DNA from: a virus
Lineage: Duplodnaviria > Heunggongvirae > Uroviricota > Caudoviricetes
IMG/VR virus record: IMGVR_UViG_2703718856_000009
Coordinates: 1-35,532 of that record
Length of the DNA: 35,532 nt
Reading direction: 5' to 3' (one strand)
The notes beneath the pieces were generated by a model that had not been told where the DNA came from, searched no databases, and saw nothing but the letters and a program-made list of their open reading frames with translations. Position numbers and translations under genes: made by a program. Below, piece after piece: positions 322 to 30,472 of this stretch (position 1 is its first letter; the number at the start of each line of letters is the position of its first letter).

Positions 322-712
322 GCCATTCAATATCGAGTGCTGTTGAAGTATTAACACGCATCAATAGCACGCGATATTTTTTCCATGCCAGTAACAGTTT
401 CGTTTCATCATCTGTTGCCATACCTAAATCAACCGCATCCTGAAGCGGCGCTATTACATTCGTTGCCTCTGCTATCAGTGCAGATTTCTTTTCATCATTT
501 ATTAAGGCTAATTGTTCTGGTGTTGGAGAAGGACGGTCAACAATGACAGGGTGACCATTCTCACCACAGGTAATCATTTTTGTTACACTCTGCGAATTAA
601 TCAGTGTTTTCCACTCTGATTCCGAGATTTCCACTGCATCATCAGGAATATTGGTGCCGTGAAATTCAGTCGAATAAAATCCGTTTGTCGATGCAGAATA
701 AAAATATGACAT
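293..712 (-). CDS. Tail fibre assembly protein (Tfa)
   Basis: Tfa-like C-terminus (..[45 protein letters not shown]..). Start taken as internal ATG at 710-712, 5 nt after the tail fibre stop, not the ORF-track start at 808. Confidence 0.75.
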
Positions 713-7031: not shown

Positions 7032-8347
7032 TTATCAATAATGAGGTAAGCGCCACCAACCAGAAGAGCAATCAGCCCCTTAGCAGGCGTCATATTCATC
7101 ACACCGCCGAGAACTTTCATGATTCTGGACAAAGAGCCTGCAGCGGCCCCCACTGTCAGTAAAGCCAGACCGATTTTAGCAATGGTCTTAACGAGCTCCG
7201 GGTTTTCACGGACAAACGTTCTCACTTCCTCAAGGAGCGGTTTTACCGCTTCAAGACCATCATTAACCTCAGGAAGAAACGTTTCCCCCAGCGTGGAAGA
7301 AATGGCATCAAGTTGATTTTGCAGAAGTAAAAGCTGGTTTTCCGTCGTCGCTGCCCTCGAAGCATATTCCTTCTGCATCGAACTGCCATACTGCTGGGAA
7401 TCCGCAACCCGCCTGAAGTTGGTACGCAACAAATCAAGGTTAGTCAGCAGAGGTGCTATCGCGCCCAGAGACTCTTTCCCGAACAGGGCATTCAGCACAG
7501 CTGCCTGTTTTTCTTTAGGCACTTTAGCCATCGCATCCAGTACAGACAGCATGGTGCCCCGGGCATCTTTCTGCATATCAGCAGCTAATTTCTTCGGATT
7601 GATCCGCAGAAAACGCAATGCCTGTTTCTGCGATTTTGTCGCAGAATTTCCCGCGGTCAGGGAAAGCATGAAGTTCTTGATCCCTGTGGCGGCAATTTCT
7701 GACTCCACGCCCATCCCGGCAATGGTTGCCCCCATTGCCGCGATTTCGCCGGAAGCCACACCTGCAACACCACCTAAAGGACCAATACGCGTAACAATAT
7801 CGGAGATTTTCTTCGCGTTCGCCGGGCCGGTATTACCAAGGTAGTTGATTTTGTCAGCCAGCCCGGCCACTTCATCCTGCGTCATATTAAACGCAGTACG
7901 CCACTGGGCCATCATCTGCCCGGACTCTTCAGCCGTGGTATCAAAGGCCACGCCCATCTTCACCGCATCAGTGGCAAACTGCATCAGTTCATCACGTGCA
8001 ATCCCGGCCTGACCGCCAGCCGCCACAATTTCCGCGATCCCGTCTGCAGACATGGGAAGCTCAGTAGACAAAGCGCGTACCTGCTCCGTCATGGCCTTAA
8101 ACGCATCCGGCGTATCCAGACCGTCCACCACTTTGCGGACATCAGCCATCTTCGATTCAAGGGTGATGGCTGATTTTACAGGGAGTGCCAGTGCCCCCAT
8201 TATTGCAGTACCCGCCCCGGCAGCGCCCAGAGCAAGGCTGGAGACTTCTTTCTGAAATCCCTTAAGCTGACGCTGCATACCTTTAAGCGGGCCGGACAGC
8301 CTGTCAACAGCGGTGATGATGGCTTTCAGCTGAAAATTATCAGCCAT
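6968..8347 (-). CDS. Tape measure protein, N-terminal part
   Basis: 459-aa Ala/Gly-rich ORF downstream of the tail chaperone; runs into the A-run frameshift. Confidence 0.8.
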   Translation of the reverse strand: MADNFQLKAIITAVDRLSGPLKGMQRQLKGFQKEVSSLALGAAGAGTAIMGALALPVKSAITLESKMADVRKVVDGLDTPDAFKAMTEQVRALSTELPMSADGIAEIVAAGGQAGIARDELMQFATDAVKMGVAFDTTAEESGQMMAQWRTAFNMTQDEVAGLADKINYLGNTGPANAKKISDIVTRIGPLGGVAGVASGEIAAMGATIAGMGVESEIAATGIKNFMLSLTAGNSATKSQKQALRFLRINPKKLAADMQKDARGTMLSVLDAMAKVPKEKQAAVLNALFGKESLGAIAPLLTNLDLLRTNFRRVADSQQYGSSMQKEYASRAATTENQLLLLQNQLDAISSTLGETFLPEVNDGLEAVKPLLEEVRTFVRENPELVKTIAKIGLALLTVGAAAGSLSRIMKVLGGVMNMTPAKGLIALLVGGAYLIIDNWETVGPVIKKSGTWWMKRRR

Positions 8348-11875: not shown

Positions 11876-12230
11876 CCAGTTCCGTACACTCCAGCAGCAG
11901 AAAGCGCCGCGCCCCGTTCAGATCACGCTGACGTTTCACCCGGTACACACGGTCATCACAGACCACCTCATAATCAGCAGTGATCCCCCGGCGGTAGCGA
12001 ATGGTGATGTAATGGGTGATGGCGTCCCCGGTCTGCGCGGTTTCCTGCCAGGTGGTGGCACTGGTCTGGATAACCTTCGCCCATGTCCGGAACGTAACCG
12101 GGTATTGAGGCTCCACGCCAAAGTTATCCGCGGGCATATCCACCCGCTGGCGGATCAGGACGCGTTTATTCAGTTCACCGGGGTCCGGCAGAATGTAGGT
12201 TGCGCTGGTCTGCGCCTGACGAATTTTCAT
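11820..12230 (-). CDS. Head closure / head-tail adaptor protein
   Basis: 136-aa ORF downstream of the connector gene in an HK97-like head module. Confidence 0.65.
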   Translation of the reverse strand: MKIRQAQTSATYILPDPGELNKRVLIRQRVDMPADNFGVEPQYPVTFRTWAKVIQTSATTWQETAQTGDAITHYITIRYRRGITADYEVVCDDRVYRVKRQRDLNGARRFLLLECTELGAEEQMGGRSGSDSIFTR

Positions 12231-12550
12231 TGCGGAAAGTACCTGTACGGGCCGACAAGCCAGCCAAAACTCTGCGGCATGTCGAGTTTCTCCACTTCCG
12301 TAACCGACGAGCGGTTTTCGTAAAAATGGCTGATAAGCATCAGCATCCCCAGACGAATATCATCCGGCAGGTGCAGCCCGTCCGGATCGCTGTCCGGAAT
12401 GGTTTCATCCGGTGCATAGAGCTTCCGGTTCAGATACGTTTCCGTCCGCTTTTGTGCCGCACAGGCCAGCAGTTGCAGATGGCGGTCATCAACATCGAAA
12501 TCCTCATCCAGCCGGAGTTGGGCTTTAATCTCTTCCATTGTCAGAAGCAT
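12227..12550 (-). CDS. Head-tail connector protein (gp6-like)
   Basis: 107-aa ORF following the capsid gene. Confidence 0.65.
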   Translation of the reverse strand: MLLTMEEIKAQLRLDEDFDVDDRHLQLLACAAQKRTETYLNRKLYAPDETIPDSDPDGLHLPDDIRLGMLMLISHFYENRSSVTEVEKLDMPQSFGWLVGPYRYFPQ

Positions 12551-27271: not shown

Positions 27272-27876
27272 GCGTTAGTTTCTCCACAGTCACGACACGC
27301 CACGGCGCCCGGAGCTGCACACTCGCGGGCGTCATTACTTTCTGAAATGCAAAAGATTTTGTAGACCAGTGCTGCATGCTCCTGCAGCTTCGAAATTGAG
27401 AGATACAGCTCGTCGTTAATTGCTGTCTTCTCATGCGGTTCCACCACACCGTCTTCGATTGCCGAACGAATCTGTCTGGAATAACTGCCAATCTGTTCAA
27501 TGACTTCCAGCAGGCGCTGGTTAATATCGGCGTTGTCCACATCCTCGACGTCAGGAAGAGACACAAAGACGCCATTTGCAGACTGCGCCACAGCGTCAGC
27601 AATGAAGTGAGTTCCACCAGCACGTTGCAAAATCATTGCCCATCCCAGCGGGAAAATCTGATCGCCATCGGCACGAAGGCGGTTAAATAATGCGTTTTCT
27701 GTTACATCCAGCCAGTCAGCTGCTTCAGCGTAACCACCCGGCAACGCTGCGATAGTTTTTCTGACAGCTTTCACGTACCACTCAGGCTGTTTTTCTACTT
27801 TCCAGTGATGCTTACCCACGGTTAGCCTCATCGTTCTGTGGTTTCTGTTAATCGATTTATCCATTAGATTTTTCAT
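27268..27876 (-). CDS. cII-like / YdaT-like regulatory protein
   Basis: Downstream of cro on the same strand; start taken at internal Met ([13 protein letters not shown]...); the ORF-track start at 27933 would overlap cro extensively. Confidence 0.55.
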
Positions 27877-28057
27877 AAAGCTCAGGTTTAAATGGCAACC
27901 GTCCGCAAGTTCTATATGCAGCTTCTGCTGCACGTCCTTTTGGAATTAACTGGCCCGGACGGTTTCGCCACTGATAAACGGCTTCAGTTGTTATGCCGAA
28001 AAAAGCAGCAACTTTCTCAATACTGCCGAAGTAGCTTTCGATATCGTCAGTTGTCAT
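27857..28057 (-). CDS. Cro-like repressor (small HTH protein)
   Basis: 66-aa ORF divergent from cI. Confidence 0.8.
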   Translation of the reverse strand: MTTDDIESYFGSIEKVAAFFGITTEAVYQWRNRPGQLIPKGRAAEAAYRTCGRLPFKPELYEKSNG

Positions 28058-28154
28058 ACGCCCTCCAAACTAAGTTTTATTAGATGCTAATTACAAATCT
28101 ATCTTTGGTCAATAAAAACTAAGATTACTTAGCAATTCAAGAAATGGTGCTCCT
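28058..28154. promoter_or_regulatory. Divergent cro/cI control region (OR-like operators with PR and PRM)
   Basis: 97-bp AT-rich intergenic region with palindrome CTAAGATTACTTAG (28119-28132) and related CTAAGTTTTATTAG (28070-28083). Confidence 0.6.
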
Positions 28155-28781
28155 ATGGAAACGGTTGGTCAGCGTATAAAAGCTCTGAGAAGAGTTACCG
28201 GAACGTCCCAGAAAGAATTGGGTAAATTTTGTGGAGTAAGCGACGTTGCTGTGGGGTACTGGGAGAAAGACATCAATACCCCTGGTGGGGAGGCACTTTC
28301 GAAATTAGCGAAGTTCTTCAATACGTCAATAGATTACATTCTTTATGGTGCTGAGTTTGAAGGCAAACTCGTCACAAACATGCGCAGAGTTCCTGTAATA
28401 TCGTGGGTTCAGGCTGGGCAGTTTACTGAGTGCAGGGCAGCAGAAGTGTTTAGTGAAGTGGACAAGTGGGTAGATACATCATTAAAGGTTGGTGATAACT
28501 CATTTGCATTAGAGGTTAAAGGTGACTCCATGACTAACCCTAATGGCCTCCCAACAATACCAGAAGGCGCAACAGTGATTGTAGATCCAGATGCAGAACC
28601 TCGTCATGGAAAAATAGTCATCGCTCGACTTGATGGAACAAACGAAGCTACAGTAAAAAAATTAGTCATCGATGGCCCTCAAAAGTTTTTAGTGCCATTA
28701 AATCCTCGGTATCCCAACATCCCTATCAATGGTAATTGCCTTATCATTGGTGTAGTCAAAGGAGTTCAATACGAACTCTAA
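28155..28781 (+). CDS. CI-type repressor (HTH plus LexA-like S24 peptidase domain)
   Basis: 208 aa; N-terminal HTH (..VTGTSQKELGKFCGVSDVAVGYWEK..), C-terminal S24-like region with GDSM and a downstream Lys. Confidence 0.9.
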   Translation: METVGQRIKALRRVTGTSQKELGKFCGVSDVAVGYWEKDINTPGGEALSKLAKFFNTSIDYILYGAEFEGKLVTNMRRVPVISWVQAGQFTECRAAEVFSEVDKWVDTSLKVGDNSFALEVKGDSMTNPNGLPTIPEGATVIVDPDAEPRHGKIVIARLDGTNEATVKKLVIDGPQKFLVPLNPRYPNIPINGNCLIIGVVKGVQYEL

Positions 28782-28789
28782 GACCTCTC

Positions 28790-28865
28790 TTCTCTAACTA
28801 AGGCACCGAACTAAGAAAAGTTTGGTGTTTTCTCTTGCCATAATAACTAAGTTAAGTTAGATTTT
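28790..28865. promoter_or_regulatory. Candidate OL/PL-like operator region
   Basis: CTAAG-containing operator-like repeats (28798-28815, 28847-28860) just downstream of cI. Confidence 0.3.
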
Positions 28866-29028
28866 ATATCAAAGATAACGAACAGGCAGGACGCCCACGA
28901 AGTAGCCGCCTGGGGCATATGAAGTCCAGGATGATTCGTTAGCAACAAAAAAGCGCCCTACAGGACGCTTAGCTCTTTAACAATCTGGTCCCCATCAACA
29001 AGTAACTGATAACTTGAGGAGATGTGAA

Positions 29029-29235
29029 ATGCACAAAACAGAACCCAAAATCGTCGCGCCTGGCTACACAGATGAGGAAATTTATGAGTGGATGACAAAG
29101 AAGCTGGCAGCTATAAACCAGCTTCGTGAAGTGCTGTCTTATCGACAGGAAACAATAGACTCCTTAAAAAAACTGGATCAGGAAATCACGGTTTTATCAC
29201 AGGATGTTACTTTAGATATTGTGCAGACAAATTAG
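29029..29235 (+). CDS. Hypothetical 68-aa protein (coiled-coil-like)
   Basis: ATG at 29029 with GAGGA RBS 9 nt upstream; 3' end overlaps the convergent 144-aa gene by 29 nt. Confidence 0.5.
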   Translation: MHKTEPKIVAPGYTDEEIYEWMTKKLAAINQLREVLSYRQETIDSLKKLDQEITVLSQDVTLDIVQTN

Positions 29236-29641
29236 GATCCCATTCATTTTCGTCAAAATCATCAAAGTGATGAATTTGTGATCTCCAGTCTCGATAATCT
29301 AAAAATTTCTGGGCGGTTACGCTTATTTTATCAAGTGTGAGTTCATCCTGAATTGAAAGAAGAAGTTCATCAAATTTCATCTCATTAATCTGTTTTGGCA
29401 TCCAGTGATGCTTCATCAGAATAAGGTGAACCAGAGCCTTTTTCCCATTCAACTGATTATAGGGAGTGCCGAATTTCTTCCGGTGCTCATGTAAGACAAG
29501 GTCCAAAAGAGTAAGTAATGTTGCCCTTGATTCAACTTTGCTTATTTCGACTGATGACACTACCCCACTGATTTCAATGCCCCGATACTTTCCAACATTT
29601 TCACAGTGGGATTTGTACAGCGTATAGATATTACCGGACAT
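29207..29641 (-). CDS. Hypothetical 144-aa protein (AT-rich moron opposite to early-left transcription)
   Basis: AAGGA RBS 7-8 nt before the ATG (29639-29641); direct repeats GTTGTTGGGGA(A)TAAC twice (29657-29674, 29690-29708) in its upstream region. Confidence 0.6.
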   Translation of the reverse strand: MSGNIYTLYKSHCENVGKYRGIEISGVVSSVEISKVESRATLLTLLDLVLHEHRKKFGTPYNQLNGKKALVHLILMKHHWMPKQINEMKFDELLLSIQDELTLDKISVTAQKFLDYRDWRSQIHHFDDFDENEWDPNLSAQYLK

Positions 29642-29789
29642 TTCTTTTCCTTTTGCGTTGTTGGGGATAACCAGATTAACCGAATCCTTGTTGTTGGGGA
29701 ATAACTAGGTCCACCTCGCCTGATGTGGCTAAAAGCAGGCACATAACAGCTAAGTATTTTCAACCAGAGAGAATCCTTAGCGTTGTGGT

Positions 29790-30109
29790 GAATGCGGCTC
29801 AGCGCACGCGGGTTAAGGTTGAGGCTGACAGTCGACCTTCTGTGGATACCCACCCGCCTGGTGTGCAACCTTCGCCAGGCACCGGGAGGCACCCGGCACC
29901 ACAACTTTATGCTGTGTGTAGTCCTGGCGGTACCAGCTTGTACCCTTGCTTCCGGCTGGTACCGTCCTTTTTACAAAACAGAGAAGAGCATCACCGGACG
30001 ACGGGCTCATAACCCAATCCATCCGGGCGGCAGTCACCGCAGGTGTTCTTCTCTGTTTTGTGGAGAAACTAACCGACCTTGCAGGGTCGATATGATGAGG
30101 AGCAGCAAA
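29790..30109 (+). ncRNA. Candidate structured RNA / regulatory leader upstream of the yfdP-like gene
   Basis: GC-rich with several perfect hairpins, including a 13-bp long-range stem (29974-29986 with 30048-60); the ORF-track translation across it is not protein-like. Confidence 0.3.
29928..29972 (+). terminator. Intrinsic terminator inside the leader
   Basis: Perfect 10-bp stem CGGTACCAGC / GCTGGTACCG with a 17-nt loop, followed by TCCTTTTT. Confidence 0.6.
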
Positions 30110-30472
30110 ATGGCTAGCGAACGCAGTACTGATGTGCAGGCATTTATCGGGGAGCTGGACGGCGGCGTATTTGAAACCAAAATCGGCGCAGTTCTCAGTG
30201 AAGTCGCTTCCGGTGTGATGAACACGAAAACCAAAGGTAAGGTCTCGCTCAACCTAGAAATCGAACCGTTTGATGAGAACCGAGTGAAAATCAAACACAA
30301 ACTCTCATATGTTCGCCCGACTAACCGCGGGAAAATTTCCGAAGAAGACACCACCGAAACGCCGATGTATGTCAATCGCGGTGGTCGCCTGACTATTCTG
30401 CAGGAAGACCAGGGACAGTTGCTGACTCTTGCCGGTGAACCTGACGGAAAACTCCGCGCAGCAGGTCGTTAA
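30110..30472 (+). CDS. yfdP: YfdP-like prophage protein (120 aa)
   Basis: Start at ATG 30110 (MASERSTDVQ...) with GAGGAG RBS; the ORF-track upstream extension is non-coding; same length as K-12 CPS-53 YfdP. Confidence 0.65.
   Translation: MASERSTDVQAFIGELDGGVFETKIGAVLSEVASGVMNTKTKGKVSLNLEIEPFDENRVKIKHKLSYVRPTNRGKISEEDTTETPMYVNRGGRLTILQEDQGQLLTLAGEPDGKLRAAGR

Follow-up and report, generated by a model that had tools for sequence, protein, structure and literature searches.

We analyzed a 35,532-nt stretch of DNA from a tailed-phage record of IMG/VR (IMGVR_UViG_2703718856_000009), hereafter referred to as the window, with emphasis on the untranslated RNA leader located upstream of yfdP in the early-left operon of an SfV/SfIV/ST64B-type lambdoid prophage, which has its integration site at tRNA-Thr, beside proA. 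The leader (29782-30109, plus strand) consists of at least three independently assorting modules—a closed RNA domain related to the STnc100/PasD family (the core), an intrinsic terminator and a second conserved element that we refer to as module 3—and does not form the single element described in the original prediction. The explanation that best accounts for this architecture, to which we assign a probability of about one half, is that a terminated small RNA (sRNA) of the STnc100 type is combined here with a tL1-like transcription barrier, with read-through being set near the candidate early-left promoter pL and module 3 acting as a processing site. The leader is therefore partly known, through the STnc100/PasD family and the terminator, and partly new, through a divergent subfamily of these RNAs and module 3.

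The leader is highly structured. A segment of 341 nt spanning positions 29775-30115 folded with a free energy of -150.8 kcal/mol on the plus strand, as compared to -118.7 ± 5.2 kcal/mol for shuffled sequences (z = -6.19, with none of the 100 shuffles being as good); the minus strand of the same segment reached a z-score of only -2.99. No credible open reading frame (ORF) was found across 29782-30109, and both results agree with the untranslated, highly structured leader that had been proposed, as does its end at the yfdP ribosome-binding site (RBS), with the Shine-Dalgarno (SD) sequence GAGGAG at 30098-30103 and the AUG start codon at 30110. The description of this region as GC-rich holds to the extent that its GC content (56.9%) exceeds that of the window (51.4%), although the difference is modest; the start proposed at 29790, in turn, cuts off the 9-bp closing helix of the 5′ domain, which places the true start at 29782. 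When the modules were folded separately, free energies and z-scores of -58 kcal/mol and -2.7 were obtained for the core (29780-29907), -23 kcal/mol and -4.0 for the terminator (29920-29975) and -46.2 kcal/mol and -7.9 for module 3 (29973-30063; none of 200 shuffles as good). We also noticed that the RefSeq/PGAP annotation of locus L009 places a 'frameshifted hypothetical protein' pseudogene over the RNA modules (12144-12454, corresponding to window positions 29785-30095), which is almost certainly a spurious coding sequence.

The core is one closed domain of 124 nt with six helices (29782-29905). Helix P1 (29782-29790/29897-29905; 9 bp, GUUGUGGUG/CACCACAAC) closes the domain and is followed by AAU, and the predicted fold further comprises H1 (29794-29809), H2 (29815-29822/29832-29839), H3 (29842-29853), H4 (29856-29863/29873-29880, with its loop at 29864-29872) and H5 (CCGGG-AGGCA-CCCGG, 29882-29896). 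In an Rfam scan, all 206 positions of the STnc100 model (RF02076) aligned to 29752-29975, with the closing helix, five hairpins and the terminator in matching order; at 42.4 bits, this match of the 5′ domain and terminator lies below the gathering cut-off of 47 bits (E = 2.1e-7 for a search of 1.7 kb and 4.3e-6 for the entire window). Moreover, the conserved 22-nt 3′ segment of the family, CACCGGGAGGCACCCGGCACCA, is identical in the core. Whole-window Rfam scans, with gathering as well as E-value thresholds, detected only tRNA-Thr, this sub-threshold STnc100 match and a sub-threshold match resembling IS009, with no second STnc100 copy at the late promoter of the window. Among the three roles originally offered for the region, a prophage sRNA fits best, while an attenuator and a nut/put-like antitermination element find no support within 29790-30109.

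To place the core within its family, IMG/VR was scanned for the invariant 22-mer CACCGGGAGGCACCCGGCACCA, which returned more than 120 contigs and 72 unique cores at first, or 102 after a wider parse (24-38 clusters). Since the MAFFT alignment of these cores was unreliable in the region of H4 and the pseudoknot described below, the structure was parsed directly in Python and no covariance model was built. Canonical copies, located in late operons, scored 54-161 bits, above the Rfam threshold, whereas variants of the pL-leader type—those of the window, ST64B, phiES15, the P1-like phage SJ46, mEp460 and loci L137 and L013—stayed below the gathering level. This separation indicates, on sequence grounds, that the core is a divergent subfamily of STnc100/PasD rather than a canonical member. 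Helix P1 covaries across the family, with GC in 19 and AU in nine sequences at columns 7/190, UA in 11 and CG in nine at columns 6/191, and the pair GUUGCGGUG/CACCGCAAC in SJ46; no sequence has a P1 shorter than 6 bp, and 83% have one of 7 bp.

A further feature of the core is a pseudoknot between AAGGUUG (29815-29821) and CAACCUU (29866-29872), which competes with H2. Across the family, the linker that follows H1 is complementary to the loop of H4, with the sequence differing by lineage: AAGGUUG/CAACCUU in the window, AAGGCUG/CAGCCUU in phiES15, and CCAGUCA/UGACUGG, CUGGUG/CACCGG and AGACUGACAAA/UUUGUCAGUCU in other lineages. In 38 representatives, true partners paired with a mean energy of -9.0 kcal/mol, as opposed to -5.4 kcal/mol for mismatched partners (Mann-Whitney p = 1e-10; 0 of 2000 permutations). 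The covarying pseudoknot is proposed here; it is part of neither the Rfam structure line nor the preprint on this RNA family (bioRxiv 10.64898/2026.05.13.724894), which does not mention it. Conservation of pairing in relatives, the absence of which the original prediction had named among its refuting conditions, was found in helix P1, in this pseudoknot and in module 3.

The terminator that follows the core is genuine, with a stem of 13 bp, including two G-U pairs (29926-29938/29954-29966, plus strand), a 15-nt loop, and a C followed by UUUUU at 29968-29972. The stem begins at 29926 rather than at 29928, where it had been placed originally, and a simple terminator scan missed the element because its loop exceeds 8 nt. 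The ST64B counterpart shows compensatory replacement within the stem. Judging from its position and sequence, we consider the chances to be even that this terminator forms both the 3′ end of an STnc100-like RNA and the first barrier before yfdP. A promoter scan identified no promoter-like sites at 29642-30110 and none within the operon on the plus strand; since no such site separates the terminator from yfdP or lies inside the operon, expression of the genes from yfdP to xis and int from pL must pass position 29972.

Module 3 (29973-30061) begins at the U-tract of the terminator in every case, and precedes either yfdP or an rdgC-like first gene. The long-range stem that had been described here as 13 bp enclosing about 60 nt is real, but it measures 20 bp (P1, 29973-29992/30042-30061) and encloses 49 nt that form a three-way junction, with P2 at 29994-29998/30022-30026 (CCGGR/YCCGG in the family), a hairpin of sequence GGG-CUCAUAA-CCC (GGGCUCAUAACCC) at 30003-30015 and a variable P3 at 30027-30030/30037-30040. 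A conserved segment, UGUGGAGAAAC, occupies 30058-30068, its first four bases being the end of P1. Module 3 had no Rfam match at E-values up to 10, and a pattern scan detected it in more than 120 viral contigs. In 16 representatives, P1, P2 and P3 were 96.8% paired, with eight pairs changed on both sides (e.g., GC8/CG8); none of 500 shuffles was as good, and slid controls were 35-53% paired. Module 3 is located upstream of yfdP homologues in many genera; its Providencia version has a plain long hairpin in place of the interior, and retains the long helix and the UGUGGAG motif that comes after it. These patterns identify module 3, as judged from comparative data, as a conserved leader RNA that is unlisted in Rfam. 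Its interpretation as a second terminator was rejected, as the U-tract after the helix is not conserved.

The hairpin GGGCUCAUAACCC is identical to the anticodon arm of the initiator tRNA. It occurs once in the window (0.02 occurrences expected) and, together with its flanks, matches the E. coli tRNAfMet anticodon arm in 17 of 19 positions; the tRNAfMet sequence used for this comparison is 100% identical in 5426 of 5426 E. coli genomes, at a median of four copies. Outside the E. coli/Salmonella group, the copy of the arm reads GGGCUCAUUCCCC or CGGCUCAUAACCC, with differences in the stem or at positions 37-38, or is missing. The first collection of module 3 sequences was, in addition, biased by the search pattern, and with this partial conservation we treat the mimicry as a lead rather than as a result. 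Between module 3 and the SD sequence, a small hairpin (CGACC-UUGCAG-GGUCG, 30074-30089) is kept at its position in relatives with varied sequence. Upstream of the annotated yfdP start, two further in-frame AUG codons (30092 and 30095) overlap the SD sequence, and the UAUGA/AUGAG stretch at 30092-30112 is complementary to the CUCAU loop of the tRNA-arm copy.

The independence of the modules became evident from comparisons with related phages. A blast breakpoint at about 29925 (query position 284) marks a mosaic joint between the core and the terminator, and mEp460, cdtI and Stx2c phages without a window-type core have the segment comprising terminator, module 3 and yfdP at about 96% identity. 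In mEp460, the closing helix and its flanks are as in the window and the interior is different; likewise, mEp460, Kosakonia, Phytobacter and SJ46 have P1 and flanks in common with differing interiors. A two-hairpin mini-core occupies the same place in Kosakonia, Atlantibacter and L013, and in Phytobacter it holds a cloverleaf that ARAGORN calls as tRNA-Ile(aat), with homologous flanks and an acceptor stem consisting of the P1 sequence (GUUGUGGCG..CGCCGCAAC). The core would accordingly sit in a 'cassette slot' that has a closing helix of 7-9 bp as its boundary and for which a mini-core, another core or a tRNA are alternatives. Neither ARAGORN nor the Rfam tRNA model called a tRNA in the window core, and the relationship of core and tRNA is positional and partial, with P1 in the place of the acceptor and H5 in that of the T arm. 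T-arm-like hairpins (GGUUCGAUUCC, GUCCGUUCAACUCGGAC) were also observed directly 5′ of the core slot in L005, L007, L013 and L239, where ARAGORN finds no tRNA; they may be tRNA remnants.

To obtain an unbiased view, we gathered 28 usable yfdP-homologue loci via the protein, covering many genera of Enterobacterales. A T-tract terminator was present in 23 of these loci, a GGCUCAU-bearing module 3 in 18, the UGUGGAG(A/U)A motif also in 18, a promoter-proximal element designated PLE in 14, a P1-type cassette in 11 and the full STnc100-type H5, i.e., a full core, in three. Leaders can do without the core, but not without the terminator and the elements 3′ of it.

The contexts of STnc100 copies elsewhere provide a second line of evidence. 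Many canonical copies start 5-8 nt after a strong TTGACn-17-TAAnTT promoter and are followed by one or two terminators, a holin and an endolysin; at the three loci where flanking proteins were scanned, a Q gene (PF06530, in some cases with a DUF968 neighbour) lies 5′ of this late promoter. This layout is a PR′-tR′ arrangement, in which, according to PMC7547250, PR′ is always active and terminated in lysogeny, a logic that also yields the sRNA StxS. Other copies are found inside late operons and beside phage tRNA arrays, and in phages of the P1 type the core stands directly before the RBS of tciA or of a protease gene, without a terminator. The position downstream of the repressor in an early-left leader, as in the window, is shared by SfV, SfII, SfIV, ST64B, 118970_sal3 and phiES15. 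A general link between the core and PF06530-type Q genes was rejected, since the window phage has a Q gene and no core at its late promoter, and no Q gene is annotated in the 5-kb stretches around the core of P1-type phages. A connection has been drawn between STnc100, which is found in the vicinity of Q genes and 3′ of stx2, and PasD, an Hfq-associated sRNA that is abundant in enteropathogenic E. coli; every Pas sRNA has a terminator at its end, regarded as the site of Hfq binding, and both northern blots and RIL-seq show PasD at high levels (bioRxiv 10.64898/2026.05.13.724894). We also observed tandem STnc100 copies in some viral contigs (L141, L156, L169, L188 and others), 484 nt apart in four loci and, in L141, directly 3′ of a tRNA-Met/Arg/Arg array; in L142 and L148, two diverged copies follow each other in series. 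The two copies in L148 are adjoined by a match to isrI (56 bits; 8139-8235, minus strand), and an isrK match (64.3 bits) lies near sb41 in ST64B (L002, 21-97, minus strand), adding to the clustering of several structured RNAs in these prophages.

Elements that could enable passage through the terminator were found closer to pL. PLE (28876-28941, about 66 nt) is located just after the promoter, about 900 nt 5′ of the core, and comprises a closing helix (28876-28882/28935-28941), stem I (28885-28887/28893-28895) and stem II (28909-28913/28926-28930). Many unrelated pL promoters, representing at least six promoter/operator types, have PLE starting about 8-15 nt 3′ of their -10 element, with one copy per locus. 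Across 48 unique variants behind different promoters, 86.6% of cells were paired, versus 77.2% in shuffles (0 of 500), with covariation in the closing helix and stem II (CG11/GC8/UA6 at stem II columns 45/62, and also GC14/UA8/AU3). PLE was detected in 57 of 109 leaders with at least 2 kb of upstream sequence, and 37 others carry a nearly invariant promoter-proximal element of the mEp460 type (..ACACGGCGUAUGGCACAUGCGUCGUUAGCGG..; about 2110-2210 in mEp460, L006, and in 37 IMG/VR loci), which replaces PLE behind at least three promoter types. The first hairpin of the latter resembles stem I of the HK022 put RNA (CGGCG..AUGCGUCG), but the alignment was not significant and we rejected it as a put relative. 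Two GGA motifs in PLE, GCAGGACGC in the loop of stem I and CCAGGAUGA, resemble CsrA-binding sites, and CAGGAUGA is likewise found at the tip of stem II of HK022 put; CsrA binding is hence a candidate alternative role for PLE.

About 30 nt downstream of PLE, a hairpin (28951-28970) is followed by a boxA core, GCUCUUUAACAA, at 28972-28983, which we take to be of the rrn type on the basis of the boxA consensus. The match is exact and single in the window, where 0.24 would be expected even when one mismatch is allowed. The hairpin-boxA unit lies about 93 nt from the start of PLE in 22 of the 23 boxA-bearing leaders, with a distance of 527 nt in the remaining one. Read on the minus strand, this hairpin and a T-run correspond to the terminator call of an ECs1072-family gene, suggesting that it may serve both strands. 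A nut/put-like function is, as far as these motifs can tell, more plausibly located upstream, at 28876-28983, than within 29782-30109.

Taken together, these data are best explained by a leader in which transcripts entering from upstream would stop at 29972 and give rise to a distinct structured RNA, whose terminator hairpin and U-tail are of the kind that Hfq usually binds; by analogy with its family, the released RNA could act in trans as an sRNA. The terminator would simultaneously serve as a tL1-like barrier that keeps the genes from yfdP, yfdQ and yfdR to xis and int silent. After induction, RNA polymerase from pL would read through the terminator, the likeliest source being a promoter-near modification by PLE (28876-28941) and/or the rrn-type boxA (28972-28983), and not the core. 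Module 3 may then set the leader apart from the mRNA, serving in both processing and translation control in the manner of the RNase III hairpin of the lambda N leader; its 20-bp helix has the size of an RNase III substrate, which, by analogy, suggests a processing site. Anatomy, family relationship, covariation, modularity and contexts are the observations on which this explanation stands, and from them we infer sRNA production, action in trans, the source of read-through and RNase III processing.

Several points weigh against it. The promoter scan identified none immediately 5′ of the core, such that a discrete RNA would need 5′ processing, or else constitute the 3′ end of a long pL transcript that crosses the antisense ECs1072-family gene. 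The terminator-less copies of P1-type phages, located directly 5′ of an RBS, point to a role in cis, and the Rfam score of the core stays under the curated cut-off. Furthermore, for an Hfq sRNA, so elaborate a fold, with its pseudoknot and an invariant 3′ segment of 22 nt, is unusual and suggests a protein, RNA polymerase or ligand partner that the model leaves unexplained. RNase III cleavage of module 3 is proposed purely by analogy. As for read-through, about half of the leaders bearing module 3 are without PLE, boxA accompanies only 23 of 67 distinct PLE leaders, and rrn-type boxA complexes mainly counter Rho, not strong intrinsic terminators. In addition, a PLE profile (nhmmer hidden Markov model) retrieved nothing from HK022 at E-values up to 10, and Smith-Waterman scores of putL and putR against PLE and the mEp460-type element were within shuffle range (26-906 of 1000 shuffles as high). 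With putL and putR located in HK022 and both kinds of test negative for PLE, homology of PLE to HK022 put was rejected, as was that of the core, which was compared with put by eye; PLE is at most a functional analogue, and a candidate put-like RNA by position only.

Other functions of the core have to be weighed against this explanation. The arrangement of its helices—with a P1 of about 7 bp and a 5-bp H5 that abuts the 3′ strand of P1, like a T arm on an acceptor stem—raises the idea of a tRNA-like processing or stability module, in which a minihelix mimic would allow RNase P or other tRNA-processing enzymes to cut the long leader at this point and so determine transcript ends and stability in cis. 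We consider this unlikely, even though it would account for the Phytobacter slot (in which the same P1 sequence and homologous flanks enclose a tRNA-Ile), for canonical STnc100 copies within or beside phage tRNA arrays, for the T-arm-like hairpins GGUUCGAUUCC just 5′ of the core in several relatives, for the uniform length of P1 and for P1-type phages that carry the core among tRNA genes, without a terminator. Neither tRNA search recognizes the core, however; the AGGCA loop of H5 is not a T-loop, no CCA or discriminator context is present, and the common P1 could simply mark a recombination joint. It is very unlikely that the core acts as a cis-acting processive antiterminator of the put or EAR type, binding polymerase and carrying it past 29972. 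EAR is a precedent for an internal, pseudoknotted antiterminator RNA, and a complex fold with an invariant segment, the constant sense orientation in operon leaders (pL, late operons and the tciA/ban region of P1), a P1-type copy without terminator and a phage without N would all be compatible with such a function. Canonical copies, on the other hand, lie next to a Q gene, with a constitutive-type late promoter on one side and the terminators that precede the lysis genes on the other; an antiterminator acting on its own at such a site would switch on the lysis genes in lysogens, a lethal outcome. Together with the accumulation of STnc100 and PasD as discrete terminated RNAs, this makes a stand-alone put-like antiterminator very unlikely. 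The core is, moreover, optional where the terminator persists (three of 28 loci), a mosaic joint separates the two, and no similarity to put is detectable. For these reasons, the nut/put-like element proposed for 29790-30109 was abandoned in favor of the candidates at 28876-28983.

The attenuator of the original prediction, reformulated as a riboswitch in which the core would be a ligand- or factor-binding aptamer and the terminator its expression platform, is highly improbable. An aptamer-like junction, the pseudoknot, invariant unpaired bases and a terminator within 20-40 nt in most lambdoid copies speak for it, as does the complementarity of CCUGGCG (29923-29929, overlapping the start of the 5′ arm of the terminator) to the 3′ arm of H4. 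That pairing is not kept in ST64B, though, and no conserved alternative pairing between core and terminator was found; variation of the spacer and terminator is unconstrained, and their exchange at the joint near 29925 does not involve the core; the terminator is missing from some copies and present in relatives that have no core, the decision in late operons is made by Q, and no Rfam riboswitch family matched. A quite unlikely proposal concerns module 3, which as an initiator-tRNA anticodon-arm mimic might serve as a decoy or sensor (for MetRS, the 30S P site/IF3 or an anticodon nuclease such as VapC of Shigella/Salmonella) or pair through CUCAU with AUGAG in the start region, gating translation or survival of the early-left mRNA. 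The uniqueness of GGGCUCAUAACCC and its 17/19 identity, its position on a three-way junction supported by covariation, GGCUCAU in 18 of 28 unbiased leaders, and AUGAG at or near the start codon in many relatives are consistent with this role, and VapC cleaves tRNAfMet. Conversely, other genera have GGGCUCAUUCCCC or CGGCUCAUAACCC, Scandinavium and Providencia are without the motif, part of the apparent invariance stems from the search pattern, AUGAG at the start is also explained by a Met-Ser N-terminus, and the arm copy may be a tRNA gene remnant. With a put/nut-like antiterminator or a riboswitch thus unlikely, a terminated STnc100-type sRNA combined with a tL1-like barrier remains our preferred explanation.

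The surrounding region has the layout of a lambdoid early-left operon. The S24/helix-turn-helix repressor gene (cI; 28155-28781, plus strand), recognized by Pfam analysis of the flanking genes, faces cro (27857-28057, minus strand), and a CII-like gene is also present. The promoter scan placed a site (TTGCCA-17-TAGATT, 28835-28863, plus strand) just 3′ of the repressor gene, which, based on its sequence and position, is a candidate for pL; operator-like ACTAAG..TTAG repeats surround it at 28809-28862 and recur in the cI-cro region at 28068-28132 (repeat families D2, D4 and D5). In line with the original prediction, no N-like protein was found among the window genes, and no N-like ORF between cI and yfdP, by ORF list, Pfam or annotation. 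A small 68-aa ORF 3′ of the candidate pL (29029-29235, plus strand) was rejected as an N-like candidate, since it has no Pfam hit and is missing from ST64B. The ECs1072-family gene (29207-29641, minus strand; 144 aa, 37.9% GC, no Pfam hit) is an AT-rich, moron-like insert antisense to the pL leader, and pL transcripts cross it. The early-left operon comprises, on the plus strand, yfdP (30110), yfdQ (DUF2303), yfdR, two more genes, a helix-turn-helix protein and the integrase; among the late genes, a Q-family antiterminator is assigned by annotation only. We give even odds to the entire pL leader being an untranslated, modular RNA of about 1.2 kb, of which 29782-30109 is the distal part.

The leader modules are contained in an intergenic region of 469 nt (29642-30109), a match to which occurs in 2782 of 5426 complete E. 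coli genomes. Upstream of the core, the direct repeats GTTGTTGGGGATAAC and GTTGTTGGGGAATAAC flank CCAGATTAACCGAATCC at 29652-29705 (plus strand), a block that is kept upstream of the leader in a Kosakonia prophage (L256) and may be a regulatory site for the divergent ECs1072-family gene. A hairpin just 5′ of the core (GCCUG-AUGUGGCUAAAAG-CAGGC, 29718-29740, plus strand) is nearly unchanged in core-less leaders (L013, L081, L086 and Mangrovibacter) and constitutes a further leader module; as this block is shared with leaders of other genera, its reading as a weak promoter of the core was rejected. At the other end of the window, the sub-threshold IS009 match mentioned above is full-length (342-518, minus strand; 48.6 bits against a cut-off of 117, E = 2e-8), IS009 being another prophage-associated RNA family named in the Pas preprint (bioRxiv 10.64898/2026.05.13.724894).

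These results bear on a large group of phages, as few prophage RNAs of E. coli, Shigella and Salmonella are as widespread and as abundant as STnc100 and PasD. The covarying pseudoknot, the closing helix and terminal hairpin in a tRNA slot and the occurrence in three operon contexts suggest a protein- or enzyme-binding fold over a simple seed-pairing sRNA. PLE and boxA, for their part, are two short, defined candidates for the means by which N-less phages of the SfV/ST64B type express xis and int in spite of the terminators after pL. The pseudoknot, the tRNA-slot relationship, module 3 with its tRNA-arm copy and the PLE/boxA pair are new and testable points. In a broader and rather unlikely scenario, early-left control in these N-less phages would lie with a series of devices made of RNA alone: PLE, at times joined by an rrn-type boxA, as a new class of promoter-proximal antiterminator that replaces N and is unrelated in sequence to put; a tRNA-derived, pseudoknotted STnc100-type RNA released at the first terminator; and a three-way junction with a mimic of the initiator-tRNA anticodon arm gating the first gene, for instance by decoying or sensing host factors or nucleases that are directed at anticodons.

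Finally, the leader can be compared with known systems. HK022 put, located just downstream of PL, comprises about 70 nt and two stems (PMC9378689). Both cases involve a lambdoid phage without N in which the early-left operon opens with a structured RNA and terminators, yet the 124-nt six-helix domain at 29782-29905, about 900 nt from pL, is unlike put in size, topology and position, and a comparison by eye of the sequences alone revealed no likeness. PLE comes closer to putL, being promoter-proximal, about 65-70 nt long and endowed with the short motifs CGAAC.GGC and AGGAUGA; it differs in having a closing helix, another topology, a single copy per phage and no putR counterpart. King et al. 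reportedly described put-like RNAs in prophages in 2011, in J Bacteriol, and PLE or the mEp460-type element may be among them. With lambda nut and rrn boxA, the pL leader shares an exact boxA after a hairpin, in the hairpin-then-boxA order of rrn leaders, whereas this site lies outside 29782-30109, is not accompanied by an N-like protein and occurs in about one third of related leaders. Within 29790-30109, no boxA of a lambda-type nut site was seen on reading the sequence, the only boxA core match of the window being that at 28972, and H5 resembles boxB in dimensions only (5 bp and a pentaloop).

For module 3, the lambda N leader, with its RNase III hairpin, and the thrS operator, which mimics a tRNA anticodon arm, are the relevant precedents. 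Like the former, module 3 places a long perfect helix just 5′ of the RBS of the first pL gene, although its helix closes a conserved three-way junction instead of forming a simple hairpin. As in thrS-type mimics, a hairpin in an mRNA leader would copy a tRNA anticodon arm, with the differences that the initiator tRNA is copied and that no partner protein is encoded nearby. The core shares with STnc100/PasD the prophage location, the pseudoknot, which is also found in canonical members, and the helix order of closing helix, AAU, H1 with a bulged base, variable arms, H4, CACCGGGAGGCACCCGGCACCA and terminator. It departs from them in H1 (GCGGCUCAGCGCACGC, as compared to the canonical CCCCCUGUGCGGAGGGG), in the extra arms H2 and H3, and in its position about 900 nt 3′ of pL in an early-left leader, canonical copies being located at +1 of a late promoter after Q, or in late operons near tRNAs. 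The terminator, lastly, invites comparison with the short PR′-tR′ transcripts, lambda 6S RNA and StxS. While it belongs to an early-left rather than a late operon and no adjacent constitutive promoter is evident, the likeness consists in a short RNA that originates from an operon leader terminator, which is passed only after antitermination; and the canonical STnc100 copies have exactly the PR′-tR′ layout (PMC7547250).

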